Below are positions 20,742-60,175 of a DNA stretch of 64,000 nucleotides, one piece after another. Under the pieces are notes generated by a model. The model saw only the letters and a program-made list of their open reading frames with translations. It did no database searches and was not told where the DNA came from. Numbering within the stretch: the first letter of the stretch is position 1; every line of letters begins with the position of its first letter. Source of the stretch: a virus (lineage: Duplodnaviria > Caudoviricetes); IMG/VR virus record IMGVR_UViG_3300026519_000012, positions 751 to 64,750 of that record. The stretch is one strand, 5' to 3'. A program made the translations under genes and the position numbers.

Positions 20742-20921
20742 ACGTTATGTGTCAAATAAACAATACACTCAATAGCGTCTCAAAATCGCCGCCGCACAAA
20801 ATCTTCTTTTTACCTATATACGGCCCAGAAACTTCGTAATCGTCGATTGATATTCGTTTTATTTTATAGTCGCTAATACAGATATTTACCGATGGCTCAA
20901 TGTCACAATTAAATCGCCATA
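20742..20921 (-). pseudogene. Truncated copy of cassette 2 gene (53991..54332)
   Basis: 180 bp matching 53981-54160 with 2 mismatches; the 5' half of the gene is missing. Confidence 0.85.
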
Positions 20922-44835: not shown

Positions 44836-46226
44836 CTAAACGCGTACAAATACTTCGTTATACGGACGCCGCAACCTCTGCATTTGTTGGGCGCGTGGGC
44901 GAATTGTCAGTAAATTTGACTAACAAAAGCCTAGTTGTTCATGACGGCATAAACGCCGGAGGGCAAGAACAAGCAAGGGTTGATTTTGTTAATGTCGATG
45001 GTGTGCCAGCGTTGACGCAATTAAGTGCTGGTGTGGGTTCGATTGCAGGATTAACTGTGGGTGCTAATCGGCTTCTATATACTGAATCTTCTGATTCCTA
45101 CACATCAACGAGCTTGACCTTGCTAGGACGTAATCTTTTAGCAGGAAATAATACAGCCGCTATGCGTGCAACGTTGGAAACTCCTGGGCTGGCTGTCTCG
45201 AATACGTTTCTTAATCAGCATAATGAATTTCGTGGTCGTATTGAAATGAACAATCACGGTGTTACTCCTGCAAGTTTTGTTCATCATGATGACAACGCGG
45301 ATGTTGATAAAAAGCGTTGGGGCATTACAACTTCAGGAACGGCGAACGGAGACTTACATTTTCAAGCGCGCTCGGATGATGATATTACCCGTGTTGATTA
45401 TATGGTATGTACTAGAGGTACGGGTGTGTCTGTATTTAGGGTTAATTTGCTTGCGGGGGAAGTACAGGCAAATGGTAGCAATATTGTTACAGAGGCTAGA
45501 AATAATAATTTTGCAGGGCAGCAAAGAATTACTAACACTGCGCCTACCTTGTTTTTACATGAGACAGGCGTAGCGGCAGATAGTGGGAAATATTATTTTC
45601 AGGTGGATAGCACTAACCTGACTTTGTTTTTGATGAATGACGCAGAAAATGCATCAACTCCAGTAATGCAGTTTGCTAGAACGGGTATAAATAGTGATGC
45701 AATTGATTTTACTGCGGATAATTTTCGGATTAATGGTGAGTCGGTTGCTACACAATCACCTGCCGTGCCCGGCTATGTCAAAGGCAAAGCGGTTTATGTA
45801 TCAGCTACAGGGGACAACGGGTTAGGTATAAACATTGCTTCTAGCGCCGTTATGGATGCATGGGAGTCTTACGGCCCGACAGGTTCCGGCGCGAGTAACA
45901 TCATGGCGGATCTAGACGTACTCCCGGCAGGAGCTACTTGGGTAGAGTTATCTATACGATTGCTTATCCGCCGGATTTCAGCTCCCGATACATTAGTGGC
46001 TGTTTACGCACGGCCTACAGGTAGTACGGCTAATGGGATACTCACTTCAGTGGTTCTTCATGAAGCGCAGACGGATGCTGGTGAGATAAATGTGTATTTT
46101 CTACATCGGTCTATAAAGGTTGCGCTCGATGCGCAAAACCGTTTTGAACTTAAGTGGGATATCCCTGCATCTGGAACGGTACTATCCCAAGGTATTATAG
46201 CCATAGTCACAGGCTTCGGTGCCTAA
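44832..46226 (+). CDS. Tail fibre (phage B), Mtd-like N-terminal anchor
   Basis: VQILR...FVGRVGEL...LVVHDG..AGG N-terminal motif; C-terminus shared with 12038..13513. Confidence 0.8.
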   Translation: MTKRVQILRYTDAATSAFVGRVGELSVNLTNKSLVVHDGINAGGQEQARVDFVNVDGVPALTQLSAGVGSIAGLTVGANRLLYTESSDSYTSTSLTLLGRNLLAGNNTAAMRATLETPGLAVSNTFLNQHNEFRGRIEMNNHGVTPASFVHHDDNADVDKKRWGITTSGTANGDLHFQARSDDDITRVDYMVCTRGTGVSVFRVNLLAGEVQANGSNIVTEARNNNFAGQQRITNTAPTLFLHETGVAADSGKYYFQVDSTNLTLFLMNDAENASTPVMQFARTGINSDAIDFTADNFRINGESVATQSPAVPGYVKGKAVYVSATGDNGLGINIASSAVMDAWESYGPTGSGASNIMADLDVLPAGATWVELSIRLLIRRISAPDTLVAVYARPTGSTANGILTSVVLHEAQTDAGEINVYFLHRSIKVALDAQNRFELKWDIPASGTVLSQGIIAIVTGFGA

Positions 46227-46229
46227 ATA

Positions 46230-46424
46230 ATGAACCAAGATAAAATAGAAATAGCAAAAAACGTAGGCGACGCGGTAGTAATACCGACTGGCGTTGTGGT
46301 GTCAATAAGCTATTGGATCACTGATATTATCAATCCATTGATAACAGCGCTGATAGGCTTAATGACTATAATTTGGCTTTTTTATAGGATCAAAGAGAGT
46401 AAGCGCATCACGAAGGCACCTTAA
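46230..46424 (+). CDS. Putative holin (copy 2)
   Basis: Identical to 13517..13711. Confidence 0.55.
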   Translation: MNQDKIEIAKNVGDAVVIPTGVVVSISYWITDIINPLITALIGLMTIIWLFYRIKESKRITKAP

Positions 46425-46481
46425 TGAGCGACCTTATTATTACATCGCTATCATATAAACCCGTTACAAGGTAGGAATGAA

Positions 46482-46946
46482 ATGTTGATCGATAAATTTT
46501 TCATAATAGGGCTGCCAAGGAGTAGAACCTACTGGCTAAGTCAGTTTTTTGGCTGTCTCCACGAAGGCGTTTATCACTACCCAGATTACAGGGATTTTCT
46601 TAAGTCTGACCATACTGGTGATAGCACTACTTGTTATTTGCAGATAAAGGATCTAATCAAGGATGAGAGAAAAGTAATCATACATAGGGATATTAAAGAT
46701 GTTGGAGATTCTCTTGTTGAGCTGTTTGGGAAGTTTGATTGTAGCTTTCTGAAGGATATTGAAAAAGAATTACTAGAAGAAGATGGGCTTCATGTCCAAT
46801 TTGATGACATTAGCTCACGGTTAGAGGAGATATGGGATTACTGTAGAAGCGATGAATTCCCAAAAGAAAAAGCACTAAAAATGGACGACGTGATAATGGA
46901 AAACCATTTTTTAATTGGAGAGGTAAAGAAGCTTGTCATCTTATAA
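46482..46946 (+). CDS. Sulfotransferase-like protein (copy 2)
   Basis: Identical to 13769..14233. Confidence 0.6.
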   Translation: MLIDKFFIIGLPRSRTYWLSQFFGCLHEGVYHYPDYRDFLKSDHTGDSTTCYLQIKDLIKDERKVIIHRDIKDVGDSLVELFGKFDCSFLKDIEKELLEEDGLHVQFDDISSRLEEIWDYCRSDEFPKEKALKMDDVIMENHFLIGEVKKLVIL

Positions 46947-47502
46947 GAAGCTTGATTTAAGGCTTAATGTCCAGCCGCTCAAGGAAGCCTTGGAGCGCAG
47001 GAGCGACTTATTCGGCAAGTATGATTACCGGGCGACTTCTGAAGGATCGCCACACTCGGAAATGAAAGATATCTGGGTGAGATATAAAGACGTTGCGCCA
47101 CATATAAAATCGGGAGATTTCTCTAGCTTCGCTAACGAACATGACTCTATCTGGTATCAGGTATACCGGGATCTACCGGAGACAAAAGAGATTATATTTT
47201 CTGTAATGAACGCAGTAAATGGCGAACGACTTGGCGGCGTGTTAATCACAAAATTACCCCCCGGCGGTAAGATAAAGAAACATGTTGACGGTGGGTGGCA
47301 CGCTGAGTATTACGATAAATATTACGTGCCTGTTAAAAACGAAGACGGCGCTATATTTTCGTTTGAAGACGGGGTCATCGCCCCGGCGGAGGGTGACGTG
47401 TACTGGTTTGATAATTCTAAACCTCACTGGGTAGAAAACAACTCTGATTCGGAGAGAATTGCTATGGTTATTTGTATAAGAACTGATGGAGTAGAAAGCT
47501 AA
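46933..47502 (+). CDS. Asp/Asn beta-hydroxylase-like oxygenase (copy 2)
   Basis: Identical to 14220..14789. Confidence 0.8.
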   Translation: MSSYKKLDLRLNVQPLKEALERRSDLFGKYDYRATSEGSPHSEMKDIWVRYKDVAPHIKSGDFSSFANEHDSIWYQVYRDLPETKEIIFSVMNAVNGERLGGVLITKLPPGGKIKKHVDGGWHAEYYDKYYVPVKNEDGAIFSFEDGVIAPAEGDVYWFDNSKPHWVENNSDSERIAMVICIRTDGVES

Positions 47503-48938
47503 TGCCTTGGGGAGCAGCAGCGGTTATAGGTGGCGCGCTAGTATCCGGCTACGCATCAAATCGCGCGGCAGGAAAAGCGGCAGACGCATCACAATACGCC
47601 ACTGACAGCGCTAACAGGCTATCTGAGCGGCAGTTCGATATGGTACGTGGCGACACGGCACAAGCAAGGGCTGCAGGTGGTGAGGCGGGTGCCGAGCTAT
47701 CACGATCGCTAGGCCTTAGGACGCCGATCCCTGAAGCTTTTAACAGGCAAGCGGCAATCAGAGAGGAGATCAGGAGGTTACGCGATCGAACGGGGGACGA
47801 ATGGCGAAACTATGGCTTCACTGGGCAGTACGCTATTGAAGATGAGCGCTCTAGGCAGATCAGAGAGCTTGAGAATGAAAGTGATAATTTAACGCTTTAT
47901 GACGAAGCCCAGCCATTAGAAGGCGAAGTCCTGCCACAGTTTGGCGTTGAATTTAACTATAGCGGCGAAGGGCCTCAGTTTGAATACGGCGGCTCTCAGC
48001 CGGAATTTAATGATGCTAGTCGATTAAGCCAGTTTCAGAATCAGGGTGAGAATCTGCAAAGTTTTGAAACGGATCAAGAGGTTTCGCAGTTCGGCCAAGG
48101 TGACCGGTTCGAGTATGACCTCGAAGGCGATGCTGGCTATCAGTTTGCTCGTGATGAGGCAATCAAGGCCACCGGACGAGTCTCTGCAGCACAAGGCAAG
48201 CGCGGCAGTGGTAACCGGCTGGCAGAGGTCGCAGACCGCGTGACGGGCGTTGCATCGCAGTATGCTGACCAAGCTTTTAACCGACAGGTTAGAGCTTCCG
48301 CTGAGAACTACGGCCGAGACGTAAATGAATTCGGCCTTCAGCGCGCGGGTGATACTGAAGCGTACGGGCGAGAGCGTGGCGAATTCGCCATTGATTATGG
48401 CCGAAACATTGATCAGTACGAGCGCGATATCGGGGCTTTCAACGTAAACACTGGAGTGGCAGATCGCAACTATGGCCGAGAGCTAACGAGGTACGAAATC
48501 GCTCGAGGAAGAGAGGGTGAAGGCTATAATCGGGCAAATCGCCTCTATGAAGTCCGAACGGCTGAGGATAACCGAGAATATCAACGCGCGGGCGATGAAT
48601 ATAATCGTGGTTTCACAAGGTTTGGTGTTGAGACTGATCAGAATCGGGAGCTATACGGCCGTCGCCAAGATCGATTAAATCGACTTGCAAGTATGGCGGG
48701 AGCTGGGCAAACGGCAGTCAGTCAAAGTGCAAGCGCAGGTAGCAACTATGTCAATGCTGCCAGCAACAATCTGATGGCAAATGCTCAGAATCAGGGGAAT
48801 GCCGCGATGGTTAAATATCAAGGCCTAAACAATGCAGCACAAGCTGGGATCTCTAACATGTTAAGTTACAACCAGCAGCAGCAAAATAACCAGATGATGC
48901 AACAGTGGCTGAACCAGCAGCCGGGGGCGCTAAGATGA
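47502..48938 (+). CDS. DNA ejection protein gp7-like (copy 2)
   Basis: Identical to 14789..16225. Confidence 0.7.
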   Translation: MPWGAAAVIGGALVSGYASNRAAGKAADASQYATDSANRLSERQFDMVRGDTAQARAAGGEAGAELSRSLGLRTPIPEAFNRQAAIREEIRRLRDRTGDEWRNYGFTGQYAIEDERSRQIRELENESDNLTLYDEAQPLEGEVLPQFGVEFNYSGEGPQFEYGGSQPEFNDASRLSQFQNQGENLQSFETDQEVSQFGQGDRFEYDLEGDAGYQFARDEAIKATGRVSAAQGKRGSGNRLAEVADRVTGVASQYADQAFNRQVRASAENYGRDVNEFGLQRAGDTEAYGRERGEFAIDYGRNIDQYERDIGAFNVNTGVADRNYGRELTRYEIARGREGEGYNRANRLYEVRTAEDNREYQRAGDEYNRGFTRFGVETDQNRELYGRRQDRLNRLASMAGAGQTAVSQSASAGSNYVNAASNNLMANAQNQGNAAMVKYQGLNNAAQAGISNMLSYNQQQQNNQMMQQWLNQQPGALR

Positions 48939-50095
48939 GCGGCTTTAAGGTATTTGATTACAATCAGGCCATCGGTGGTGCAAACCAGAGCAGCCGAAAT
49001 AGACTTTCGATGATGCAGGGTATGCAGTCGATGACTGATCGCAGGGAAGATCGGCAATATAATCGGCAGAGTCAAAACCGACTATCTGAAATCAGGGACA
49101 ATCAGGAGAACCGCGCGCAGGCTCAATTCGACCAGAAACAGCAGATTGAGAATACAAAGTTTTTCTACCAAGGAATGACCGAAGTCGCCAGAGATCCATC
49201 GCGTGCCCAGTATTGGGCGGATGAACTTAAGAAGCGTGGTATCGCTGATTTTGACATCTCAAAAGGGACCCCAGAGCAATTACAGCAAGGGGCGGCTAAG
49301 CAGGCAGATGCACTTCGTAAATCATTGGAGGCCATTGGTGAGATTGCGCCTGAGCCACGGGAGAAATACGGGCAACCTGTTGCGGGCGTGGGGCCGAGTG
49401 GTAATCCCGAATTTCAGCGCTTTGGTGACCGAGGTAGCGCCCAGATTGTCAATGATTTCGTGCCGAGCAAGAAAGTCCCGCTGGTGAGCATAAATAAGGG
49501 CGAAGACAAGTACGCGACGGAGAGAATGAAGTTGCAGGCTCAGGGTATTAATGACTTAGGGAAAAATGCTAGCGCGGCGTACAAGTCATCCATGGCGATG
49601 GATCGGTTTACCAAGGCATCCGAAAAAGGAACAGAAGGCGGTGCCCAGCCAGTTATAACGGCGGTAAAGAACCTTTTAACCTCTTTTGGGTATGATGACA
49701 AACAGTTGGCGGAAGTAAGAATCATGGAGCAGGCGATCAATGACGTGCTTGCAAATAAGATGGCAACATTGGGTGCCCGCGGGCTGACTGACAGTGATAT
49801 GAATATACTCAAGGCGTCGCTACCTAGAGTTGCTACTGATCGCAATTCGAGGCTCGAAGTAGCTCGAATATTGAAAATCCTCAACGATTTTGAAATTGAT
49901 GAGTATATTGCCGAACTTGATGAAGAGAAGAGAATTAACCCTGAGCTAGCTAAGCGGATAATGGAACCGAGGTGGCTTAGGTTTTATAAAGCAGAAAAGG
50001 CCAAGGAGGCGAAGGGCAAGGATGGAGCGCCGCCGCCCTCAACCGATCAGCCCCCCCCCTCAATTGATGACCTGGTGAATAAATATGCCAACTAG
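48935..50095 (+). CDS. DNA ejection protein (copy 2)
   Basis: Identical to 16222..17382. Confidence 0.6.
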   Translation: MSGFKVFDYNQAIGGANQSSRNRLSMMQGMQSMTDRREDRQYNRQSQNRLSEIRDNQENRAQAQFDQKQQIENTKFFYQGMTEVARDPSRAQYWADELKKRGIADFDISKGTPEQLQQGAAKQADALRKSLEAIGEIAPEPREKYGQPVAGVGPSGNPEFQRFGDRGSAQIVNDFVPSKKVPLVSINKGEDKYATERMKLQAQGINDLGKNASAAYKSSMAMDRFTKASEKGTEGGAQPVITAVKNLLTSFGYDDKQLAEVRIMEQAINDVLANKMATLGARGLTDSDMNILKASLPRVATDRNSRLEVARILKILNDFEIDEYIAELDEEKRINPELAKRIMEPRWLRFYKAEKAKEAKGKDGAPPPSTDQPPPSIDDLVNKYAN

Positions 50096-51899
50096 AGAGC
50101 AGCTCGAATCAGCGCTAATAAATGCTGATAAGGCTGGAGACATTAACGCTGCAAAGCAACTTGCAATGGCAATCAAGCAAGGAGGTGAGATAGTCCAGCC
50201 ACCTCAAGAGGTGCCACCCAAAGACCCAGCTGAAGTGTACTCAGGATTCATACAGGGACTTAGAGATCCGGTTGACGGGCTTGCTCAGCTTTTATACGAG
50301 GCATTGCCAGAAGGGGTTAGAGAGTCAGGGGACGCTTTAAATAATTGGCTTTCTGAGAAAACAGGTTTTATTGAAAAAATCCCTGAAGGTGGGTTTACTC
50401 AATTGCTAAAAGACAAAGAAGCGAGGTACCAAGCCGGTCGAGTTAAAGAAGGAGACGAGGGCGCTGATCTGGACAGAATTGGAGGAAACTTCGTTTCAAT
50501 GGCGGTTCCGGGCGCACAAGTTCGCGCAGTCAGCGCGCTGGGAAAAGTCGCTCAGGGAGCGGCTTTGGGCGCAGGATATGGCGCGGCGTTGCCAACCTAT
50601 GGTGATGAGTTCTGGGTAGAAAAAGGCATGCAGGCCGCGATTGGTTCTGCTGCCGGAGGCGCCCTATCGGCCAGCGGTGTTGCCGCTGGAAAAGCCATCG
50701 ATGCAGGGAAGCGCATTTTACGACCTATGACTTCTGGCGGAAGAAAGGCTGATGTCACTGACACTTACCAGACTTTAGCCGGGAGTGAAAAAGATAAAAT
50801 TATTAGCGCGCTAAAATCAGCAAAAAAAGGGCAAACATCAGCGCAGGCAATCGCCAACGCTAACCGGGGAAGTAACGATGTATTTGGTGCGTCTATTGTC
50901 CGCCTAGAGAAGGACTTATCAAAAAAATCCCCGATTACCGACAAAATGCGAAGTGTTTACAAAAAACAATCAATGGATCGAAAAAGGTCTCTTGATAAGA
51001 TCGCAAAAACAGATGGTGACCTTGCCGAAGCAATAAAACAAAGAGATAGCAAGGCCGCTCCTTACTATGATGCGGCTCGGAAGTCCAGCAATAGCATCAA
51101 TGTCGAAACGCTAAGAAATAGCATCGATGGAGTTATAAGAGACAATATAAACGATACTGCGATCACTATTCCCCTTAAAAATATCCAGAGAAAGCTAAAG
51201 GATGCAACGCCAAGAGGGCTTATTTCAACGTCAAGCCATATCAAGCGCCTAATGAACAAAACAATAGACGGGAAAAATGTCTATGACAAAAAAGTGCTGA
51301 CTGAGATCAAGGAAGCGCTGGATAAGAGTATTGAGAAAAGCGTTGCTGATTACGACATTGCTAGAGAGATTATCAGGAGAGAATCTGTCCCCATAAATCG
51401 AATGAAAGTCGGCCAAGAGCTTAAAAAATCGCTTATTGATGCCACCGAGCAAGAGAAGGCACGGCCGTTTGTGAACGCACTAAGGGAGGCGCCTAGAACA
51501 GTTAAGCGCGCCACCGGGTTTACGGGCAATAACACGCTTGAAAACATTTCGAGCAGGGCCGAAATGGAGACATTTTATAAAATAAGGGATGAGCTGCTAA
51601 CTGACGAGAGCATGAGTAGACTTGCAAAAGGCGTCGACGGTGTTTTATCTGACATTTCTACGCAGTCAAAACCTCAACTGCCAAACGCTCTTGTCAGAGA
51701 GATTATGATAGCCAATCATCTGTTGAAAAGACTGGCGCACAAAGATTATGGAGCCGATTACCAGCGAATGATGCTTGACCTGCAAAAAAACCCAAAGTTG
51801 CTTGCAAAAGTGCTTCAGACAGAAAAGGACAGGAAGGTTCAGTCAGCAGTAATCAGATTGGTTGGTGAAGGCGCCGTTGTTTCAGCAGTGCCGCAATGA
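50085..51899 (+). CDS. DNA ejection protein (copy 2)
   Basis: Identical to 17372..19186. Confidence 0.65.
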   Translation: MPTREQLESALINADKAGDINAAKQLAMAIKQGGEIVQPPQEVPPKDPAEVYSGFIQGLRDPVDGLAQLLYEALPEGVRESGDALNNWLSEKTGFIEKIPEGGFTQLLKDKEARYQAGRVKEGDEGADLDRIGGNFVSMAVPGAQVRAVSALGKVAQGAALGAGYGAALPTYGDEFWVEKGMQAAIGSAAGGALSASGVAAGKAIDAGKRILRPMTSGGRKADVTDTYQTLAGSEKDKIISALKSAKKGQTSAQAIANANRGSNDVFGASIVRLEKDLSKKSPITDKMRSVYKKQSMDRKRSLDKIAKTDGDLAEAIKQRDSKAAPYYDAARKSSNSINVETLRNSIDGVIRDNINDTAITIPLKNIQRKLKDATPRGLISTSSHIKRLMNKTIDGKNVYDKKVLTEIKEALDKSIEKSVADYDIAREIIRRESVPINRMKVGQELKKSLIDATEQEKARPFVNALREAPRTVKRATGFTGNNTLENISSRAEMETFYKIRDELLTDESMSRLAKGVDGVLSDISTQSKPQLPNALVREIMIANHLLKRLAHKDYGADYQRMMLDLQKNPKLLAKVLQTEKDRKVQSAVIRLVGEGAVVSAVPQ

Positions 51900-52077
51900 T
51901 CCGCCAAGCATTACTTTAAAAGTAACAGTTAGCTTTTTATTTTGTTTAATATTGCCGACTCAATCGTATTTATAGCCGATCCACCCTTAATCATATCAGA
52001 CGTAACGTTGTAATGGCGTTAAAATGTTTGCCGCTCTAATTGTCTAAGCGCGGTATAAAACTGTTCTTCTATCTCGG

Positions 52078-52758
52078 TCATAATCTTTGATCCTCAAACC
52101 ACTGCTGCATACCAGTATCATAATTGCTAATGCTGGTGTGGTAATTAATATAATCGCGTCCTAATAAACCATTAACCCAATTTTTAATTTTAGTCCAGCG
52201 TGATCTGCGATTGATAACGTATGTAATATCAGGGTTGTAATATCCGGGAGGCAGGTGCTCAATCGGGTCGCCGTCATTGATAAAATGTACATTACGCTCC
52301 GGGTAATCAGCAGGTTGATAGCTGTCAACAAATGCCCCCGGTGATGCAAACGTACAGCACTGTGATTTAACACCAATATCAAACAGATCCGTATGTAAAT
52401 ACTGAGCTAACGCACCGCCGCGTGAGAATCCAGTGATGTAAATATTTTGTACCTGCTCATTATAATTCATGAGCCAGTTTTCAATGCGCTCGAACATTAC
52501 GTCATAGCCGCGAGTAAACCCATGCATACGGCCATCAGATGTTGCGTGAGCGTCGATATTGCGCAACCAGTCCAGATCATCATTGCTGCCTCTAAATGCG
52601 ATTACAACGCCTATGGCGCAATCCACGACTAGCACTGATTCGCCTAAGCCGTCAGCCTCGTTAAATTCAGTAACAAATTTTATGCCCCGAACCGGTGATT
52701 TAAACCCTTTCGCTAATTTCATAACTTGCCAGATTTGCTCGATTTCGTTATTTGTCAT
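52078..52758 (-). CDS. Lipase class 3 family protein (copy 2)
   Basis: Three N-terminal substitutions versus 19365..20045. Confidence 0.85.
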   Translation of the reverse strand: MTNNEIEQIWQVMKLAKGFKSPVRGIKFVTEFNEADGLGESVLVVDCAIGVVIAFRGSNDDLDWLRNIDAHATSDGRMHGFTRGYDVMFERIENWLMNYNEQVQNIYITGFSRGGALAQYLHTDLFDIGVKSQCCTFASPGAFVDSYQPADYPERNVHFINDGDPIEHLPPGYYNPDITYVINRRSRWTKIKNWVNGLLGRDYINYHTSISNYDTGMQQWFEDQRL

Positions 52759-52788
52759 TTATACAGTCCTCTCTGCTGATAAACCGGC

Positions 52789-52848
52789 GCAGCAATCTGC
52801 GCTAATGTGCGTGTTATACGCCATATATCCATGTACTTACTGTTATAT
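52789..52848 (+). other. attI-like recombination site (phage A copy)
   Basis: Non-hairpin site ending in G|TTATAT (G at 52842) at the head of the array; conserved with 20081-20138. Confidence 0.6.
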
Positions 52849-52854
52849 TCCTAA

Positions 52855-53856
52855 TCACGCTATCTGCTTAATTTTAAGCTCGCTGCCGCCTAGAATCGCA
52901 TTGCCGCAAGTAATCAAGCCATCCTCCTCGTCTTGTGAGGGAATAAACACAAGAGTATCGAATCCCGCAGCCGTGCAGCTATCTTCTGGCTTTTTGTAGG
53001 GTCGGTACGTTTGATACCCGTCTACCGTTTGAATACCGTTCTCGCGGCAAGCAGAATTATTATGGATCGGAGTTATCTTCACCATCCATTTATCAACGTC
53101 AAAAAGATTGGCAAGCTTTTCACCGTCCACTTCGTTACCGGAGGCGTAAGCTATATTTAAGCAATATTTGCGCCCTATAGGGCTCTGTAGGCTTTCTAGC
53201 TGATCCGCAATATACCCAAGCGTATAACTGCTTCCGCCAAACATTGCGGTTCTTTGTTTCTCTGAGCTAGTGTTGACGCTAATCTGTAATCCAGCCTGAC
53301 CTTTGAATAGATCATTCTTTATGGATGCCCATTCGTGGATTCTCTCGAACGTGTGTTTGTATTCTGGGCACATCGTGGTAAGAACTGGGTGGATAACTTC
53401 AATCCTTACTCCTGTTTCATCTTGGATTTGGCGTTTATTATTTGCCAGCCACTCGGAAAACTTAAACACATCGATATTAAAAATAGGCTCGCCCATTCTT
53501 GCAAAGTGAATGTTCAGGCGGTCTGTGTATTTTACGTTTTCGTAGGCCTTTAGTCCCGTATAAAACTGAGACTTTAAATCGTCAAAACTAACGTTACCTG
53601 AAAACTTAATGTTTGGTACGTCGCAAAAGGTGCATTTCATTATGCAACCATATTGAGTAGATAGGGTGATAACCCACTTCTCTTGCAGCGGCATAATCTC
53701 GCCATTCTCAACACCGTTAAGCTCGCGGGTGTAACCTAAAAAGTCGGCTTTTATGTTTTTGCGTTTCCCGTAATCACCAATGGAAAGGGTTTCTAATTTT
53801 CCTTTGGCGTAGTCATCAACAATCAAATACCCCGTGGGTAAGAAAATTTTATTCAT
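52855..53856 (-). CDS. Radical SAM protein, RlmN/Cfr-like (cassette 1)
   Basis: STQYGCIMKCTFC (CxxxCxxC), RMGEP, LQISVN and C-terminal TCG. Confidence 0.8.
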   Translation of the reverse strand: MNKIFLPTGYLIVDDYAKGKLETLSIGDYGKRKNIKADFLGYTRELNGVENGEIMPLQEKWVITLSTQYGCIMKCTFCDVPNIKFSGNVSFDDLKSQFYTGLKAYENVKYTDRLNIHFARMGEPIFNIDVFKFSEWLANNKRQIQDETGVRIEVIHPVLTTMCPEYKHTFERIHEWASIKNDLFKGQAGLQISVNTSSEKQRTAMFGGSSYTLGYIADQLESLQSPIGRKYCLNIAYASGNEVDGEKLANLFDVDKWMVKITPIHNNSACRENGIQTVDGYQTYRPYKKPEDSCTAAGFDTLVFIPSQDEEDGLITCGNAILGGSELKIKQIA

Positions 53857-53883
53857 GGTAGATTAGCCTTCCTCACAAATGGA

Positions 53884-53989
53884 ATATAACAAGGCAAATC
53901 CACTCCGACAAAATAAAGCGGTGCTTGCCCTGCGTTCTTTTTTAGCTCCTCACGCCGCTTTATTTCGCGGGTGATTTGCGACGTTATGT
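53884..53989 (+). other. attC site 1
   Basis: ATATAAC-aagGCAAATCCAC...GGTGATTTGC-gac-GTTATGT. Confidence 0.85.
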
Positions 53990-53990
53990 G

Positions 53991-54332
53991 TCAAATAAAC
54001 AATACACTCAACAGCGTCTCAAAATCGCCGCCGCACAAAATCTTCTTTTTACCTATATACGGCCCAGAAACTTCGTAATCGTCGATTGATATTCGTTTTA
54101 TTTTATAGTCGCCAATACAGATATTTACCGATGGCTCAATGTCACAATTAAATCGCCATATTTTTTGAGTTTCGTCAAAAGAAATATCAATATTATCGGC
54201 AACAAAGCCACGGTCAAATAACGCGCTGTAAACCTCTATTGGCTCAATCTCGGCATCTTTAGTGCCCTCAGCGTCCATCAAGTGTTTTTGGTCTCTTACC
54301 TCTAATTCTAGTTTTGCGAGTAATCCACACAT
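53991..54332 (-). CDS. Hypothetical protein (cassette 2)
   Basis: ATG lies inside the R'' of attC2. Confidence 0.6.
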   Translation of the reverse strand: MCGLLAKLELEVRDQKHLMDAEGTKDAEIEPIEVYSALFDRGFVADNIDISFDETQKIWRFNCDIEPSVNICIGDYKIKRISIDDYEVSGPYIGKKKILCGGDFETLLSVLFI

Positions 54333-54428
54333 AACAATTAGCTCCAGCGGACACAGTACCGCGCCGCGTTTTTAGTTAAATTTAAGCTCCTGTGCGGCGG
54401 TACTGCGCCGCTGAGCATGGCGTTAGAT
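54329..54428 (+). other. attC site 2
   Basis: ACATAAC-aatta-GCTCCAGCGGAC...CCGCTGAGC-atggc-GTTAGAT, with an extra C in L''. Confidence 0.9.
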
Positions 54429-54767
54429 AGCTCTATCATTGTATTCATCAACTGCATCAAGCGGACTCCTTAGCTCCATCTCCTCAACATCACAAACAAT
54501 GAGCTTATAAACCAGTTCATCAGGAGCAAAAACCAGTCTTTTTGTTATCCCTGTTTTAGGGTTTTTGCAGAATGCAATTTCAATTTGCCTCTCCATCACA
54601 GATGTTATTCGATCCATGTCTATTGACTCTACCCCTAATACCATTCCTTCTGGATTGAGCGGGTCATTAGAAATAGTCAGCCCACCGTCATCATTAACAT
54701 TTTCAGTATCCATGCCGCCTTCAGCAATACTGGCGGTTAATGCATTAGCTAAGCTTTTATCAATCAT
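54423..54767 (-). CDS. Hypothetical protein (cassette 3)
   Basis: GGAG RBS; the stop TAA is the TTA of the crossover. Confidence 0.6.
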   Translation of the reverse strand: MIDKSLANALTASIAEGGMDTENVNDDGGLTISNDPLNPEGMVLGVESIDMDRITSVMERQIEIAFCKNPKTGITKRLVFAPDELVYKLIVCDVEEMELRSPLDAVDEYNDRAI

Positions 54768-54793
54768 AAGGCAACTCCGTAATTAAGTTCGCA

Positions 54794-54880
54794 ATCTAAC
54801 AAGTAATTCCAGTGGACGCTGGTAGTCCAGCGCTTCGCGCATGCCGCATTCCGCGCGCCACTGAATAAAAGTCGTTAGCT
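54794..54880 (+). other. attC site 3
   Basis: ATCTAAC...ATTCCAGTGGAC...CCACTGAAT...GTTAGCT. Confidence 0.88.
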
Positions 54881-55141
54881 GTCAAACGAAATAGCACTGA
54901 TTGTCTTAATCTGCCGATCAAGCGATTTCAACTTCCTAATTCTAATCTCGTCAGCCCTAAGCACTGCGTCCTCTCTACATTTGTGCCAATCCCGCCCCTC
55001 ACCGTGCAAATAAACCGCACAAGAACATTTATTTTTAGGTATAACAATCAGAGAGTTGTTAGCATCCATAGGGTCAATCTCGTGCTCAATAATGCCCTCT
55101 GTTAAACAATATTTCGTGCTCCAAATTTTCATCTTAGTCAC
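54875..55141 (-). CDS. Conserved phage hypothetical protein (cassette 4)
   Basis: WSTKYCLTEGI...GEGRDWH...KSLDRQI. Confidence 0.65.
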   Translation of the reverse strand: MTKMKIWSTKYCLTEGIIEHEIDPMDANNSLIVIPKNKCSCAVYLHGEGRDWHKCREDAVLRADEIRIRKLKSLDRQIKTISAISFDS

Positions 55142-55151
55142 TCCGTCGCAC

Positions 55152-55249
55152 AGCTAACAATCAAAATTCACGCGGACAAAATGCCGCGACGTTTTTACTA
55201 AATTTAAATCTCATCATTGGCATTTAGCCGGTGATTTTGGGCGTTATGC
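55152..55249 (+). other. attC site 4
   Basis: AGCTAAC...CAAAATTCACGCGGAC...CCGGTGATTTTG-ggc-GTTATGC. Confidence 0.88.
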
Positions 55250-55250
55250 C

Positions 55251-55544
55251 TTAAATTGAATTAAGTATTTTAATGCCGTTATAAAACGGAGATTCTGATT
55301 TTTCAAATTGCTCTTTCGCATTAAGCATTTTCTCTCGCCATTGCTCGCGTGTTTGCAATGCCAGCAAAATTTGGTCACGACTTAATTCGTCGAATTCTTC
55401 CCGCAGTTGTTCCATGTTCATTTCTGATATTGATACTTTTCTATACTCAACGCAACTATCCTTTGAGTGCTGTGGATAAATAGGGCATGTTTTATTTGCT
55501 TTTGAGCAGAAAAAACATTCTTTGCTTAGTTTAGGCTCAGGCAT
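55251..55544 (-). CDS. Hypothetical Cys-containing protein (cassette 5)
   Basis: True start probably MPEPK, with the ATG inside the R'' of attC5. Confidence 0.55.
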   Translation of the reverse strand: MPEPKLSKECFFCSKANKTCPIYPQHSKDSCVEYRKVSISEMNMEQLREEFDELSRDQILLALQTREQWREKMLNAKEQFEKSESPFYNGIKILNSI

Positions 55545-55640
55545 AACAATTAGCTCCAGCGGACGCAATACCGCGCCGCGTTTTGTAGTAAATTTAAAGT
55601 TCTCAGTGGTGGTACTGCGCCGCTGATCATGGCGTTAGGT
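55541..55640 (+). other. attC site 5
   Basis: Close relative of attC2; GCATAAC...GTTAGGT. Confidence 0.88.
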
Positions 55641-55853
55641 GGCTTGTGGTTGCTCTACGGCTGATAGTATAAAGCTGGCTCTACAAATCACTTCCTCGCC
55701 AACTCCCTTTACGTTGTAATCACGTATGGCCGTTGTTTTCCCACCGCAAACAATCCCGGTTATCCATGTGTCGCACTGTTCCGTTACCCGCATCATAAAA
55801 GTTCCTTTTCGTTGCGCTGTGATTAAATATGTTTTTCCTGTTTCAATGTTCAT
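55635..55853 (-). CDS. Hypothetical protein (cassette 6)
   Basis: GGAGG RBS; stop lies in the crossover. Confidence 0.6.
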   Translation of the reverse strand: MNIETGKTYLITAQRKGTFMMRVTEQCDTWITGIVCGGKTTAIRDYNVKGVGEEVICRASFILSAVEQPQAT

Positions 55854-55881
55854 TTTCTAATCCTCCAGTGTAATTCCCGCA

Positions 55882-56000
55882 ATCTAACAAAACAAATCTA
55901 CGCGGACAATGTGCAGCGGTGTTTGTTTGCGTTGGCAGTTAAGTTAAAGTTCGTCTCAGTGCGCTTGCATTCCACAAATAAGTCAATTTAATCGTTAGGC
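55882..56000 (+). other. attC site 6 (right arm degenerate)
   Basis: ATCTAAC..CAAATCTACGCGGAC is intact; the L' arm is poorly complementary; ends GTTAGGC. Confidence 0.65.
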
Positions 56001-56285
56001 ACACAGTTCGCATTCACCATCACAGCAGCGCTCTTCATGATTCAGCAGTCCGCGCATAATATTCTCCTCGGCATTTTTTAAAAGCTCTTTTAACTCAGAT
56101 GCGTTTTTACATTTCCCGCATTCCTTATCGATAATAGCGCTTATAACTTGGGCAATAGTTGCGTGATAGGTTATTTTTTTCTTCCGTTTTACATTTCCGT
56201 TTCTGTCTTTCCCGTCCCGCCATTGGTATAACTGCCACCCCGATGTATCTCGTTTAAAGCTATAATTTTCGTTTAATTTGATCAT
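55995..56285 (-). CDS. Hypothetical protein (cassette 7)
   Basis: AAGGAAG RBS; stop lies in the crossover. Confidence 0.6.
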   Translation of the reverse strand: MIKLNENYSFKRDTSGWQLYQWRDGKDRNGNVKRKKKITYHATIAQVISAIIDKECGKCKNASELKELLKNAEENIMRGLLNHEERCCDGECELCA

Positions 56286-56358
56286 TTTGTCTTCCTTAAA
56301 AAAAAATGGTGGGCCAAGGCGGGCGCATTAACCAGTTATGCTATTGGCCCTAAAAAGC

Positions 56359-56469
56359 GCCTAACAATTGCATCCACCCGGACAGTCCTACGCGGTGCTC
56401 ATTTGTGCCAAAAAAGCCTGGCACAAGCCTCCACGGCTTCGGCCTGCGCGGTTATGCGCGACGTTATGT
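56359..56469 (+). other. attC site 7
   Basis: GCCTAAC..GCATCCACCCGGAC...CGGTTATGC-gcgac-GTTATGT. Confidence 0.82.
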
Positions 56470-56470
56470 A

Positions 56471-56680
56471 TTAAATATCTTTTAGCCATGATGTGTGATA
56501 AACAACTTGACTACCATTCTTAAACTCTAGCGTTACGTCACCATTAGAATCAACTCCGCGAGCAATAGCTTTCCGGTTTGAATAGCTGTCTTTATACATT
56601 ATTTGGTATTTTTTGCCCGGCTGAATATCATTGCGCGAGAGGCAATTATCAGTGTTTAGCATTACTCGCTCCTTTGCCAC
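56471..56680 (-). CDS. Small hypothetical protein (cassette 8, gene b)
   Basis: Stop immediately after R'. Confidence 0.5.
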   Translation of the reverse strand: MAKERVMLNTDNCLSRNDIQPGKKYQIMYKDSYSNRKAIARGVDSNGDVTLEFKNGSQVVYHTSWLKDI

Positions 56681-56844
56681 TCACGACTAATTGAATTCTT
56701 ATGCCAGCCCTCTTGTTCAAGCTTCGCTTCTGCCATGTCTACCAGCAGCGCAATATCGCACTCATCTCTAACAGAGCCGCAGTCTTTCATGACGTTCACC
56801 TTGTCACAGATAGCGGCGATTAGCTCTAAATTGTCCATAATCAA
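56662..56844 (-). CDS. Small hypothetical protein (cassette 8, gene a)
   Basis: GGAG RBS before MDNLE. Confidence 0.5.
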   Translation of the reverse strand: MIMDNLELIAAICDKVNVMKDCGSVRDECDIALLVDMAEAKLEQEGWHKNSISREWQRSE

Positions 56845-56858
56845 TCTCCAATTGAGTC

Positions 56859-56946
56859 ACATAACAAGTGCTTACACGCGGACAGTCTTCCGCGTCGTTC
56901 GCTCCGCTCTCTATGCCCCAGCCTGCCGGTGAAGCTGTCGTTAGCT
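56859..56946 (+). other. attC site 8
   Basis: ACATAAC..GCTTACACGCGGAC...CCGGTGAAGC-tgtc-GTTAGCT. Confidence 0.85.
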
Positions 56947-57004
56947 GCAAACGCAGGCACTTCAGCGCCGTAACATCCTCGCTACACATTCCGCTCCTTT
57001 ATTG

Positions 57005-57502
57005 TTAAAACGGGATATCATCATCAAAGTCGTCAAAGTTCTGTGATCCGCCTTGCGACGGTGCAGCACTCTGACGTTTGTTGTCGGCACTGCTCGGCGC
57101 ACCCCCGCCTTGATTTTGATGCTGGTTTTGGTCGCCCCCATATTCACCGCCGCTTGAGCCATCACGGCTATCCAGCATCTGCATATTGTTAGCGACGATT
57201 TCAGTCGTGTAGCGATCTTGACCGCTGGTTTTATCCTGCCATTTACGTGTACGCAGGCTACCTTCCACATATACCTTAGAACCTTTCTTCAAGTATTCAC
57301 CGGCGACCTCACCTAAACGATTAAAGAAGACGACGTTATGCCATTCGGTACGCTCTTGCTTCTCGCCGGTCTGTTTATCTTTCCATGACTCGCTCGTGGC
57401 AATCGTCACATTAGTGACCGCTGAACCACTCGGTACATAGCGCACATCAGGATCTTTACCTAGATTACCAATCAGGATTACCTTGTTAATACCTTTTGCC
57501 AT
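57005..57502 (-). CDS. ssb: Single-stranded DNA-binding protein
   Basis: [15 protein letters not shown]...ERTEWH...DFDDDIPF; gammaproteobacterial type. Confidence 0.97.
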
Positions 57503-57609: not shown

Positions 57610-59235
57610 TTACTCGGCTTTTGATTCAACGAAGGCAACATGCGGGACATTGCCGGTTGAAATCATTTCGGCAATTTGTTTGGCCTGTTCAACGTTGATG
57701 GCCGTGTTATCAACTAAGTATTTCGCGACCTCTGCGAGGCTCGTTCTCCGCACTGAGCATGTCACTTTCAGGTTCTTCTTGGTTTGGACTGGCGCTGCGC
57801 TGCTTGACTGCGCTCCGCCATTTAATGGCGACTCTGTTGCGTCTTTGATGGCGGCTGCAGTTTGCTGATTTTCCTCTAAATCGATACGCTCATTTTCAAG
57901 CTTCTGCTGCTCTTCCTGTCTGATTTTCTCGCGCTCAGCTTCGATGCGCTTTTCTTCGGCTGCTTTGTGCTCTGTGATTCTCAGCTTAATGACGTTAACA
58001 AGATCATCGTTATTTTTAAGTACGAGTGTTGCAGCGTCAGAAAATAGAAAAGTGTAATCAGCGGCTAACTCCCTTAATGAGTCAAGGTTGGTTTGTATTT
58101 TGTCAGCAATTTCATTTGATTCAATCTTTGCTCTAGCCAGCTCCGTATCAACCGCATTTCGTTGGCTCGACACCGTTCGCTTGCCTTTTACAGCGCCTGC
58201 AAAGTCAGTCGTAATAGCTGGCATATATGGCTTTCCAATGCGTTTATTTAGACTTTCAATGTGGGTGCTCATTGCAGATTTTCCAGCCTGCAAAATCTCA
58301 AAGCGAACAGCGTCTTTTCTTGCTTGAACCAGTTTTTTTAGATCAAGGCGGGTTGCTCTGGCTTGCGCCTTGATATCGTCAATGGTTTTGAATAGCTCAT
58401 CGATGGTGGCCGTTTGGCTGAGTGCGTGCTCCTTTGTCGCTTCTAGGCGCTTTTCTACTTCACCGCACCATTTGACAGTTTTCTCGGCATTGGAAAAATC
58501 TTCGTCCGTTTGAAGATCTTTGTTGATATTGTCAAAGACAGCTAGCGCCGTTTCTCTAAATTCCATCAGGTTTGATGACGTTACCATGCCACTTATTTCA
58601 ACGCGCAATGCTGGGAGCGTTTCAGGGGCTTTTCCGATAACTTCCGGCGCAGTTTCGACGTGCTGATAGTTAGCGACATCTTCATCTAGCTGTGCCCATC
58701 CGGCCAAAAGAGATTTTCTGTCATCAGGATTTAGCGTCATCACAACATGTACGGTTTTTTCTTCCGTGCCGTCCGTGACCATATAAAGGCATTTTTCAGC
58801 ACCAACACAAAGCTGCTGGACAACTTGCCAATAATCCTCAAGGGGTACAATTCCATTGCGAACATCATCGGCTTTTTCATCGTTCCACTGCTTGCACTCC
58901 CAAGCATAGTCTTCTTCCATCGTTATCCCATCATAACTGGCAAGTAAATAATCATCGTCATCAATGGCTGTTACAGGATAAAGCTTTCTGCCGATAATGG
59001 ATTCAGCAATTGGACGTGATTCCGCCTCGACTTCATGTCCTTTTTTGAAGATTACATTTTGCACATAGCTATCGATCTCTTTCTCGCTACCAGTGGCCAT
59101 AATTTGAATCAATTCGTTACGACTGGTATTTTTGCTAACACCCATCATCACTGGGGCCATTGATGCCGAGTGTGGATATTTTCCGCGAATATCATGCCAC
59201 GCCTGCTCGCCCTGAACTACATTAAGAATTTTCAT
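57610..59235 (-). CDS. YqaJ-like (lambda exo family) exonuclease with long coiled coil
   Basis: QGEQAWHDIR, SASMAPVMMGVS, GHEVE, LLASYDG, WECK, QVVQQL. Confidence 0.88.
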   Translation of the reverse strand: MKILNVVQGEQAWHDIRGKYPHSASMAPVMMGVSKNTSRNELIQIMATGSEKEIDSYVQNVIFKKGHEVEAESRPIAESIIGRKLYPVTAIDDDDYLLASYDGITMEEDYAWECKQWNDEKADDVRNGIVPLEDYWQVVQQLCVGAEKCLYMVTDGTEEKTVHVVMTLNPDDRKSLLAGWAQLDEDVANYQHVETAPEVIGKAPETLPALRVEISGMVTSSNLMEFRETALAVFDNINKDLQTDEDFSNAEKTVKWCGEVEKRLEATKEHALSQTATIDELFKTIDDIKAQARATRLDLKKLVQARKDAVRFEILQAGKSAMSTHIESLNKRIGKPYMPAITTDFAGAVKGKRTVSSQRNAVDTELARAKIESNEIADKIQTNLDSLRELAADYTFLFSDAATLVLKNNDDLVNVIKLRITEHKAAEEKRIEAEREKIRQEEQQKLENERIDLEENQQTAAAIKDATESPLNGGAQSSSAAPVQTKKNLKVTCSVRRTSLAEVAKYLVDNTAINVEQAKQIAEMISTGNVPHVAFVESKAE

Positions 59236-59236
59236 A

Positions 59237-60175
59237 TTAGCTACCTTCCTGTTCCCACGCGTCAATTTGATTTTGTTGCTCAGGTGTTAGTTGCATTGCA
59301 GTAAGCGCAGTGCTGATAACGTCCTTGGCTGATTTCTTTCCTGATCGCACTAATGCCTCGCAGTCTTTTGCCAGCTCCTGAAATTGATCGTCAGTGCAAG
59401 CGATAAGGGTGTCGCCTTGAGTGGGCGCGCCCTCATCACCGCCTCTATCCATGTCAATAACAACCCCGCCTTCTATAATAGGGTTCCGGCCTGCTTCCGC
59501 TGCATGGCTAACAGTGATTGCATTGGAGACCTCAACCGAGCAAGGCATATATTTCAGCACTTGAAGTAGCGGTACTTTTCTGCAATACATTTCCCAATCT
59601 CGATGGCTGTAATGGCTCCTCCCAACTTTATTGTATTTATCACGGTGCTTCCGCAGCTTTGCTACTGTCCAGAGTTCAATGACGGGCATTTTCGAATCCT
59701 TAACCCAGCCAATAGCGTAGGCGTGAGTCATATCGTTCGGATCATCAAGATCTGTTTCATTGTGAATAACCAGGTCACGTCTGGCACCATCGGTGAATGT
59801 GTAATCCTGATCCTTAAATATAACGCCGGTGTAAACTGTGGCGCGACCACTCCGTGACACAAGATCAACAAGCCCCTTCCAGCCCGGTACAAATGTGCAG
59901 GTGGTTTTATAGGGGATCAGATACCCCGCGCCATTAACTCCGGGTTCTAAGCCCAACTGCCCGGCTGTCATTAATGATGCGGCGATACTGTTGACATCGC
60001 ACTTTTGTAGCTTTGGTGATGTGCTAAAGGCCGTTAATGCCAGCCGGGTCATCCTGTCGGCTGTCATGTGCTTAGGCAGGGCTAGTTCAAGTTGAGGTTT
60101 CAGCTTTTCCATAAAGCTGCTGAGTTCCGCAACTGGGGATTTCCGCTTTGCTGCCACTTGCTGTTGAGTAGTCAT
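59237..60175 (-). CDS. recT: RecT-family ssDNA annealing protein
   Basis: LALPKHMTADRM, QLGLEP, YLIPY, GWKGLVDL.RSG, EMYCRKV. Confidence 0.92.
   Translation of the reverse strand: MTTQQQVAAKRKSPVAELSSFMEKLKPQLELALPKHMTADRMTRLALTAFSTSPKLQKCDVNSIAASLMTAGQLGLEPGVNGAGYLIPYKTTCTFVPGWKGLVDLVSRSGRATVYTGVIFKDQDYTFTDGARRDLVIHNETDLDDPNDMTHAYAIGWVKDSKMPVIELWTVAKLRKHRDKYNKVGRSHYSHRDWEMYCRKVPLLQVLKYMPCSVEVSNAITVSHAAEAGRNPIIEGGVVIDMDRGGDEGAPTQGDTLIACTDDQFQELAKDCEALVRSGKKSAKDVISTALTAMQLTPEQQNQIDAWEQEGS

Follow-up and report, generated by a model that had tools for sequence, protein, structure and literature searches.

A cluster of eight attC-like recombination sites is interleaved with nine compact open reading frames (ORFs) in a phage genome of the Caudoviricetes, IMG/VR virus record IMGVR_UViG_3300026519_000012, and every one of these ORFs runs against the polarity of the sites. 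The stretch analyzed (the window) comprises 64,000 of the 64,750 bases of the record, and + designates its strand as presented. The ORFs are tightly packed, all on the − strand, between a Lipase_3-like gene and ssb, downstream of recT-exo-ssb. The reversed polarity is considered a real observation with high confidence. It is probably best explained by a phage-borne attC cluster that comes with no integrase (CALIN), in which phage genes lie in the reverse of the integron orientation and are exchanged at G|TT by an integrase of the host. The clusters of attC in phages are themselves already known, and the literature searched gave no account of a reversed polarity of their genes.

Ordinary attC sites are built from R″, L″, L′ and R′ boxes with extrahelical bases that set their polarity, and canonical attC sites are recombined by the integron integrase at G|TT via the folded bottom strand. 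In the window, eight imperfect palindromes of 87–119 nt separate the ORFs between 53884 and 56946, and in all eight the left box reads xxxTAAC and the right box GTTAGnn or GTTATnn. The cassettes run G|TT...attC...G from 52843 to 56940, with + as the top strand of all eight sites. The sites are listed here with the position of the R′ G and the score given by a covariance model termed R1.

S1, 53884–53989, + strand: attC site, R″ ATATAAC, R′ GTTATGT, G at 53983; R1 38.0 bits on + and none on −.
S2, 54329–54428, + strand: attC site, R′ GTTAGAT, G at 54422; R1 78.1 bits on + and 27.7 on −.
S3, 54794–54880, + strand: attC site, G at 54874; R1 45.1 bits on +.
S4, 55152–55249, + strand: attC site, R′ GTTATGC, G at 55243; R1 41.8 bits on +.
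S5, 55541–55640, + strand: attC site, G at 55634; R1 69.7 bits on + and 18.7 on −.
S6, 55882–56000, + strand: degenerate attC site, G at 55994; R1 9.1 bits, E 8.5; fold −9.6 kcal/mol.
S7, 56359–56469, + strand: attC site, G at 56463; R1 32.9 bits on +.
S8, 56859–56946, + strand: last attC site, 64 nt away from the stop codon of ssb, G at 56940; R1 34.7 bits on +.

S5 is 84–88% identical to S2. S6 retains its left arm, which is 76% identical to the left arm of S4, and both core boxes, while the complementarity of its right arm is largely lost, and it is a decayed copy. The original prediction, made from the sequence before this analysis, had located the array correctly but ended it at 56865, and the array runs to 56946. 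When folded, the window sites carry on the 5′ arm of the + strand a C that bulges out and, within a GGAC motif, an extra A, and S1 likewise has extra bases in its 5′ arm. This arm has more unpaired bases on + in four of the five window sites that fold as a single hairpin, the fifth being a tie, and the same is true of 129 of 148 bacterial sites. When seven window sites are aligned by the model, 90.5% of the cells pair, compared with 71.6% in shuffles (0 of 500 reach this value) and 30–39% in slid controls, and compensatory changes are seen at 12 of 22 pairs, although the alignment behind these values was fitted to the model. MAFFT aligned the eight sites too poorly to give a usable consensus fold (4 pairs, −0.08 kcal/mol), and a scan for the motif TAACAA-N12-GGAC allowing 2 mismatches was at chance level (62 found vs 53 expected).

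The assignment of polarity is anchored in the In2 integron of R100, where intI1 is divergent from aadA1 and the coding strand of the aadA1 attC has an extra C and an extra A in its 5′ arm (GTT-C-AAGCCG-A-CGCCGC). This site reads away from intI1, and the same asymmetry is present in the window sites on +. A seed pattern derived from S2, S3 and S5 and scanned over bacterial genomes is found at no fewer than 120 bacterial loci, mostly from marine Gammaproteobacteria and also from other phyla. An IntI-like gene (tblastn, R100 IntI1) is present in 15 of the 8-kb bacterial loci listed; the pattern reads away from a divergent intI in 12 of these 15, and in 7 of 7 where the hit is full length at 43% identity or more. 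The three exceptions among the loci listed are a frameshifted gene in a Bacteroidota contig, a hit of 29% identity and a 39-residue fragment. The model R1 places the R100 aadA1 attC, which is outside its training set, on the correct strand with 37.9 bits and gives the other strand at most 5.2 bits. Run on the window with filters off, it places seven of the eight sites on + at 32.9–78.1 bits (E 7e-7 to 3e-20), while only S2 and S5 score on −, about 50 bits lower than on +. Nowhere else in the 64 kb does R1 give a score below E 0.7, and the cluster is therefore far beyond chance; because S1, S4, S7 and S8 do not match the seed pattern, their R1 hits are not circular. As judged from sequence, the eight window sites are attC-like with + as their top strand. 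This is the polarity that the original prediction had assigned, and the refuting test named with it, a covariance model placing the sites on −, came out the opposite way. A complete integron comprises intI with an adjacent attI and the promoter Pc, and there is no intI in the record, while the arrangement that characterizes a CALIN, at least two closely spaced attC sites and no integron integrase in the vicinity, is what is found, with seven significant sites within 3.1 kb.

The nine ORFs and the genes on either side of them are as follows.

Lipase_3-like gene, 52078–52758, − strand: Pfam 9e-10, phrog_21992; downstream of the array, on the same strand.
ORF1, 52855–53856, − strand: 333 residues, radical SAM enzyme with CxxxCxxC at residues 71–78; phrog_24834, E 2e-107.
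ORF2, 53991–54332, − strand: 113 residues; ATG within R″ of S2, GGAG from L″.
ORF3, 54423–54767, − strand: 114 residues; stop is the TTA of the S2 G|TTA.
ORF4, 54875–55132, − strand: 85 residues, of a widespread family of small phage proteins (phrog_22725, E 4e-16); stop is the TTA of the S3 G|TTA.
ORF5, 55251–55544, − strand: 97 residues; ATG within R″ of S5, GGAG from L″.
ORF6, 55635–55853, − strand: 72 residues; stop is the TTA of the S5 G|TTA.
ORF7, 55995–56285, − strand: 96 residues; stop is the TTA of the S6 G|TTA; weak match to phrog_154, E 3e-4.
Two-gene cassette, 56471–56838, − strand: ORF9 (58 residues, 56662–56838) then ORF8 (63 residues, 56471–56662), overlapping in TAATG.
ssb, 57005–57502, − strand: Pfam SSB 1.9e-41; upstream of the array.
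YqaJ-type exonuclease gene (exo), 57610–59265, − strand: Pfam YqaJ 5e-6; upstream of the array.
recT, 59237–60175, − strand: Pfam RecT 1.5e-28; upstream of the array.

All nine ORFs are co-directional with recT-exo-ssb, as the original prediction had stated. It had further proposed that the attC itself serves as start, ribosome binding site and stop for all of them, and this proved overstated, in that attC sites supply two of nine starts and four of eight stops. In cassettes 3, 4, 6 and 7 the stop codon of the ORF (at 54423, 54875, 55635 and 55995) coincides, exactly as predicted, with the TTA that comes next after the G of the R′ box (at 54422, 54874, 55634 and 55994), and at the S1, S4 and S7 junctions (R′ = GTTATGn) the ORF stop lies 7 nt past the crossover. 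ORF2 (ATG at 54332) and ORF5 (ATG at 55544) begin at the CAT of ACATAAC and GCATAAC, respectively, where the − strand reads GGAGCTAATTGTTATG, and the predicted start in R″ with a GGAG from L″ can be read there directly. The remaining seven ORFs start 21–74 nt outside an attC and have a Shine-Dalgarno sequence of their own (GGAG or AAGGAG). In each window cassette, the first of which spans 52843–53983 and holds ORF1, the gene start adjoins or lies in the R″/L″ arm of the cassette's own attC and the gene ends either on the crossover of the site before it or 7 nt away. ORF2 is an orphan whose sole match is an 83-residue truncated near-copy, and its start inside R″ therefore cannot be confirmed by homology.

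These overlaps of codons with sites extend beyond the window. Of 41 sites, viral and window together, at which an antisense frame is open, 23 have G|TTA providing the stop codon with its TTA (binomial p 0.002 vs one third), and these include all four of the single-site viral loci with a call (L004, L156, L158 and L160, where L numbers designate loci and contigs), in which the TTA belongs to the target DNA and not to cassette DNA. An antisense ORF starts within R″ at 12 of 46 viral and window sites vs 3 of 163 bacterial sites, and eight of these 12 ORFs have a Shine-Dalgarno sequence derived from L″. The string CTGGAG(C/T)nnnTTGTTATG is found in L003, L004, L005, L006, L007 and the window, and several viral contigs that are unrelated to one another share the motif CTGGAGCTAATTGTTATG, a Shine-Dalgarno sequence with an ATG. 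The bulged C of L″ has as its complement, on the bottom strand, the G that opens GGAG, and the opposite arm, CTGAGC, is without such a motif. The same position is where canonical attC sites carry an extrahelical G. In a subset of cassettes the 3′ arm of the hairpin would accordingly supply GGAG-N9-ATG, which is visible in the letters and whose function in translation is presumed.

The orientation of genes at attC sites was surveyed in viral and bacterial DNA. The seed pattern and two variants modelled on S1, S4 and S8 gave 16 stretches from 15 viral contigs, to which L140 was added as an exonuclease relative, and the duplicate pair L154/L155 was merged; the 16 other viral contigs then share no stretch of 200 nt or more. 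The bacterial set consisted of 60 of the loci found with the seed pattern (at least 120). The nearest non-overlapping ORF at the flanks of the sites is co-oriented in 9, antisense in 52 and absent in 14 cases in the 16 viral contigs, the corresponding numbers being 0/16/0 in the window and 192/28/76 in the 60 bacterial loci (Fisher p 9e-27). The premise of the original prediction that ordinary cassettes are co-oriented with their attC is supported by R100 aadA1 and by the bacterial flanks. When coverage of the 180-nt flanks is scored instead, the viral set has 0 co-oriented, 35 antisense, 37 covered on both strands and 7 on none, compared with 0/14/1/1 in the window and 156/24/45/81 in bacteria. 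The longest ORF per cassette is co-oriented in none, antisense in eight and ambiguous in two of 10 viral cassettes, and co-oriented in 61, antisense in three, ambiguous in 37 and mixed in two of 103 bacterial cassettes. In the window the count is 0/7/0, that is, the bottom strand in seven of seven cassettes between detected sites, and the canonical cassette with its ORF on the attC top strand is not seen there. Counted by contig, antisense calls exceed co-oriented ones in 13 of 16, two are ties (L004 and L158), and L159 has only a co-oriented call. The few antisense cassettes of bacterial arrays differ in kind, and among them are a SymE toxin domain and a DUF4160/DUF2442 pair.

Among the viral contigs, L153 has two small attC arrays of opposite polarity within 7757–9850, 1.2 kb apart, each antisense to its own convergent genes. 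A genome-wide strand effect, such as the direction of replication or the strand that is packaged, is therefore an unlikely cause of the bias. Six of 10 large neighbouring viral ORFs tested match PHROG families of named function, these families being minor head protein, helicase, head protease, DNA polymerase, RecT, tail fibre and exonuclease VIII. There is a RecT-like gene near the arrays of L153, and RecT, RecE or YqaJ-type genes lie within a few kb of attC arrays in four viral contigs, L157 (5738–9261), L153, L140 and the window. The arrays are downstream of, and on the same strand as, the recombination genes in the window, L140 and L157, and the first array of L153 lies about 2 kb past a divergent RecT-like gene. 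Only one of 14 viral loci with relatives of the exonuclease (L140) has attC sites, and the array is therefore not a lineage trait. L009 (749–5617) has an integron integrase 55% identical to IntI1 followed directly by a second gene of the Phage_integrase family, and a phage tail gene lies close by. The three attC sites of this contig are placed canonically, and a gene with a PAPS-reductase domain lies between them on the opposite strand, co-directional with intI.

Evidence for exchange of a cassette comes from within the window itself, since the entry to the array is present twice. Positions 12788–20138 (copy A) match 45501–52846 (copy B) at 99.4% over 7.35 kb, a module of tail-fibre and lipase-like genes. 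On nearing the array the copies fall to about 80% identity, then share the perfect 13-mer TACTTACTGTTAT, and all similarity between them ends directly past it. The two features concerned are these.

Left junction of the array, 52834–52846, + strand: TACTTACTG|TTAT, crossover 52842/52843; the 13-mer is identical in copy A at 20126–20138.
Array entry of copy A, 20135–20921, + strand: a different first cassette (20135–20744), then the start of cassette 2 (20745–20921).

The first cassette of copy A is an unrelated 610-nt segment with a 96-residue ORF on −, and the match between A and B picks up again, with 98.9% identity over some 177–180 nt, precisely where cassette 2 begins, at ACG|TTATGTG. Past this fragment of cassette 2, copy A breaks off into a DNA polymerase module. 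The first cassettes of A and B are thus unrelated and are bounded by ...CTG|TTAT and ...ACG|TTATG, and a replacement of one cassette bounded by G|TTAT on both sides is the product expected of an integrase-type exchange. The exchanged position adjoins the conserved left junction, which is the promoter-distal end of the array, and this junction appears to behave as an attI- or attG-like entry site. The prediction that the newest cassette is promoter-distal fits these copies, in which the first cassette alone differs and the breaks are at G|TTAT. The gene sets around the two 7.35-kb copies are unrelated, with a family A DNA polymerase module after A and recT-exo-ssb after B. Just upstream of its lipase-like gene, at 20046–20066, copy A shows consecutive stretches of C and of T where copy B is ordinary, and these homopolymers could be an artefact or a real difference.

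The cassette genes have, where they can be classified, the appearance of phage genes. ORF1 has 5159 homologues in a large protein set, some labelled as rRNA methyltransferase by the Joint Genome Institute, and its match to Pfam Radical_SAM is weak. Its homologue in L161 is 76% identical, with no attC nearby, and the similarity ends at the coding region. The ORF4 family comprises 1097 cluster representatives (E<=1e-3), mostly of about 80–90 residues and with alignments from residue 1; no close relatives of ORF4 were found among the viral contigs, and distant ones were reached via alignment. Genes of this family are without an attC within 1.5 kb in 79 of 80 viral loci, and in the single one that has an attC (L208) the site is on the strand opposite to the gene. 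From the ORF1 homologue in L161 and the loci of the ORF4 family, the cassette genes are taken to come from the phage pool, and it is partly shown that they are ordinary phage genes and not members of the bacterial cassette pool. ORFs other than ORF1, ORF4 and ORF7 were assigned to no family in Pfam or PHROG, which includes ORF3 (no match) and the pair ORF8/ORF9 (no significant family). By the same two databases no toxin-antitoxin or defence family is present among the array ORFs, PADLOC being outside this search. By blastn the array has no match to GenBank phages, and the recombination genes of the window find only distant relatives there (66–71% identity, at most 20% of the query).

Around the last site, a 61-residue ORF with a strong AAGGAG (56804–56989) begins 16 nt past the ssb stop and is open straight through S8. 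This ORF may be spurious, or it may be what is left of a gene that the array broke up. The stop codon of ssb (57004–57007) is itself part of a G|TTAA that resembles a core site, is unoccupied and lies 64 nt away from the last attC. Beyond recT there is a gap of about 1.1 kb at 60.5–61.6 kb with promoter-like hexamers on both strands. Elsewhere in the window, a tandem array with a 39-nt period lies within an ORF at 12443–12703 (93.9–97.3% identity between shifted copies), and an exact 68-nt duplication, with the copies 75 nt apart, lies within an ORF at 2093–2235.

In the mechanism that is favoured, the genes of the array would be read as the distal part of a leftward early operon consisting of a 107-residue ORF, recT, exo, ssb, the array and the lipase-like gene, and the mRNA would carry the bottom-strand version of each attC hairpin. 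Cassettes would be exchanged at G|TT by an integron integrase assumed to be supplied in trans by the host, this source being proposed because the record has no tyrosine recombinase. With the left junction as the point of entry, turnover would take place at the promoter-distal end. Both read-through transcription from the early leftward operon and mobility by an integron integrase are steps that we infer, and the interpretation given in the original prediction is, as a whole, partly supported. The reverse polarity might arise if insertion occurs at G|TTA, which is the complement of a TAA stop codon of a phage gene followed by C. As a hypothesis, such use of stop codons as targets fits the GWT target that passages of a preprint describe (Loot et al., 10.1101/2022.09.11.507474), in which cassettes insert at non-classical genomic sites termed attG (5′-GWT-3′). 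Like these attG insertions, the CTG|TTAT junction of the window and the single attC sites of other phage contigs have the look of insertions at GTT outside any attI, and the right junction is often G|TTA. In E. coli, according to the same passages, GWT insertion is without bias for strand or direction of transcription (10.1101/2022.09.11.507474), while in the phages the target is often the stop codon of a gene and polarity is biased.

The closest cultured counterpart is Pseudoalteromonas phage H101 (L151). Clusters of attC in phages were published in 2023 by Qi et al., whose main text reports that attC sites of H101 recombined with attI1 under IntI1 and describes the cassettes of H101 and TJE1 as having a structure typical of bacterial arrays (PMC9892861). 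In the parts of the article consulted there is no mention of genes against attC polarity, the strand assignments of H101 belonging to its figures and supplements (PMC9892861), and a literature search of incomplete coverage returned no account of genes systematically antisense in phage attC clusters. By R1 three sites of H101 are on +, every annotated coding sequence of the region is on −, and the sites when inspected by eye have two extra A in the 5′ arm. H101 is thus like the window in having several attC sites, no integrase nearby and small antisense genes of unknown function between them. The window differs in its larger array of eight sites, its different attC sequence type and its internal evidence of cassette exchange. 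No relatives of H101 were close enough for comparison with an empty site. The first attC of H101 (2990–3085) is almost the same in sequence as the third (4392–4487), as are the roughly 40 nt upstream of them, and this points to a recent duplication inside the array.

Compared with bacterial integron arrays (R100 In2 aadA1 and those of marine Gammaproteobacteria), the window shares the anatomy of the sites, with a bulged 5′ arm and with G|TT as the crossover point, and its attC sequence type is also found in many bacterial contigs, some of them adjoining intI. It is unlike them in having no intI, no classical attI or Pc, genes opposite to the attC top strand and genes of phage families. In chromosomal integrons, toxin-antitoxin cassettes in reverse orientation carry their own promoters. 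Like the genes of the window, those in such cassettes are antisense to their own attC, but they are isolated exceptions with their own promoters in arrays of sense genes, whereas in the window a whole, tightly packed array is reversed, with no hits to toxin-antitoxin families and no excess of promoter-like sites.

Several results weigh against a reversed CALIN that is exchanged by a host integrase. No integron integrase or other tyrosine recombinase was found in the whole 64.75-kb record (TIGR02249, PF00589), promoter-like sites in the region are at chance level (24 vs 19.0 ± 4.6 in shuffles), and no RNA run is listed for the stretch. The cassette of copy A has no attC by R1 and its right end folds weakly (z −1.7), and with S6 also degenerate, part of the array may be decaying; the record itself may consist of two related phage genomes in tandem or be a chimeric assembly. 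R1 is our own model, made from 90 bacterial attC sites, and not that of IntegronFinder, and the viral survey, with seed patterns taken from the window, reaches only attC sites that resemble those of the window. The nine co-oriented viral flanks in that survey are mostly in the GC-rich L009 and in L140. Insertion into stop codons leaves unexplained the cassettes with a start inside R″ and misfits S8, whose crossover is 64 nt from the ssb stop. Among the published phage records assessed, one is reversed (H101) and two are canonical. In Tetrasphaera phage TJE1 at least one canonical cassette is evident by eye, with the stop of orf3 in R″ and, on the coding strand, a 5′ arm that carries the additional C and A, and in Shewanella prophage M16-3 all ten R1 hits are co-oriented with the annotated coding sequences. 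R1 found nothing in TJE1, P12002L or MW202573. The hits in M16-3 lie in a complete integron and in a CALIN with its own Shewanella-type attI, and the last crossover of this CALIN, about 70 nt from the neighbouring stop, says nothing for the idea of stop-codon targets. The whole CALIN block of M16-3 (L163, 14595–17010) points against the flanking late genes, so that its attC polarity opposes the surrounding phage operon.

Other explanations have to be weighed against the same evidence. The repeats could be regulatory hairpins of the phage, acting in translational coupling, processing or attenuation, that resemble or derive from attC and are no longer substrates of an integrase. This would agree with the lack of an integrase in the record, with the placement of the sites exactly between stop and start codons, with the Shine-Dalgarno-plus-ATG motif common to several unrelated viral contigs, and with S6, which stays in place despite the loss of its right arm. 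Yet the attC scores are those of a model whose training sites were of the kind seen next to intI genes, the asymmetric bulges that are kept matter only for strand choice by the integrase, the copies A and B differ by a clean swap at G|TT on both sides, and in H101, which has the same layout, attC recombined with attI1 under IntI1, as the main text of its report states (PMC9892861). A purely regulatory role is considered unlikely, and a role of the hairpin in RNA and mobility of the cassettes could both be present. Distinctly unlikely, too, is that the reverse polarity is a historical accident without generality among phages, in which a single array entered and only genes readable from a phage promoter were retained. 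Polarity is inherited jointly within an array, so that the window amounts to a single event, both TJE1 and M16-3 have the canonical layout, and the strand-neutral insertion at GWT reported for E. coli in passages of the preprint (10.1101/2022.09.11.507474) is in line with it. What it does not account for is that the other viral contigs, 16 after merging of the duplicate and without shared stretches of at least 200 nt, are more antisense than co-oriented in 13 cases, with two ties and nothing but a co-oriented call in L159, and that both polarities occur in L153, each antisense to the local genes.

That the array is a piece of a bacterial chromosomal integron, brought in by mis-assembly or as host DNA in a prophage contig, is very improbable. 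The 7.35-kb internal repeat with its two gene sets could reflect a chimera, and attC sites of this type are common in marine Gammaproteobacteria and other bacteria. The flanks, however, are gapless, on the same strand and of phage type, with ssb, exo and recT on one side and the lipase-like gene and tail fibre module on the other; ORF1 and ORF4 are in PHROG families, bacterial arrays with this type of attC carry co-oriented genes, and 98% of the sampled words of the stretch occur in one DNA run, which may be the source sample. It is hardly credible that polarity was mis-assigned and that the top strand is −, in which case the cassettes would be ordinary ones, ending in the R″ TAA and starting in the R′ ATG. 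An attC is nearly palindromic, so that both strands read RYYYAAC...GTTRRRY, and on − the stops are in CTAAC and two of the starts lie within GTTATG, a placement that many ordinary cassettes have too; the TAA of R″ serves as stop codon for 26 bacterial sense ORFs. Against this stand the R1 scores of 33–78 bits on +, with S2 and S5 alone scoring on − and some 50 bits lower, the correct call of the R100 aadA1 site, and the extra bases in the + strand 5′ arm of four of five single-hairpin window sites (one tie) and of 129 of 148 bacterial sites.

If the favoured explanation of a reversed phage CALIN served by host integrases is taken further, phages might run a reversed cassette economy of their own, comprising entry at G|TTA, excisable phage genes, a GGAG-N9-AUG borne by the attC and silence in the host, and this wider proposal is a tentative one. 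Phage genes bracketed by attC would become excisable cassettes, and host integron integrases could shuffle them between co-infecting phages and prophages. The RNA of the bottom-strand site would supply a ready GGAG-N9-AUG, in which the first G of GGAG corresponds to the base used by the integrase for strand choice. Reversed cassettes would be unreadable from Pc, and a host could store but not express them; this silence after capture in a host integron, which the original prediction had also proposed, would follow from geometry.

Research on integrons has treated them as devices of bacteria for capturing genes that lack a promoter and expressing these from a single one. The window, 13 of the 16 other viral contigs and H101, a phage in culture, point to a different logic, in which the sites are embedded in phage operons with opposed polarity and the site itself sometimes provides a stop codon, a Shine-Dalgarno sequence and a start codon. 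H101 with Pseudoalteromonas marina is a cultured system in which this can be addressed by experiment, and the viral databases allow a simple census. If host integrases do act on these sites, the early and accessory genes of phages would gain a site-specific route of exchange that needs no phage recombinase, and that route, if true, would be insulated from expression in the host integron.

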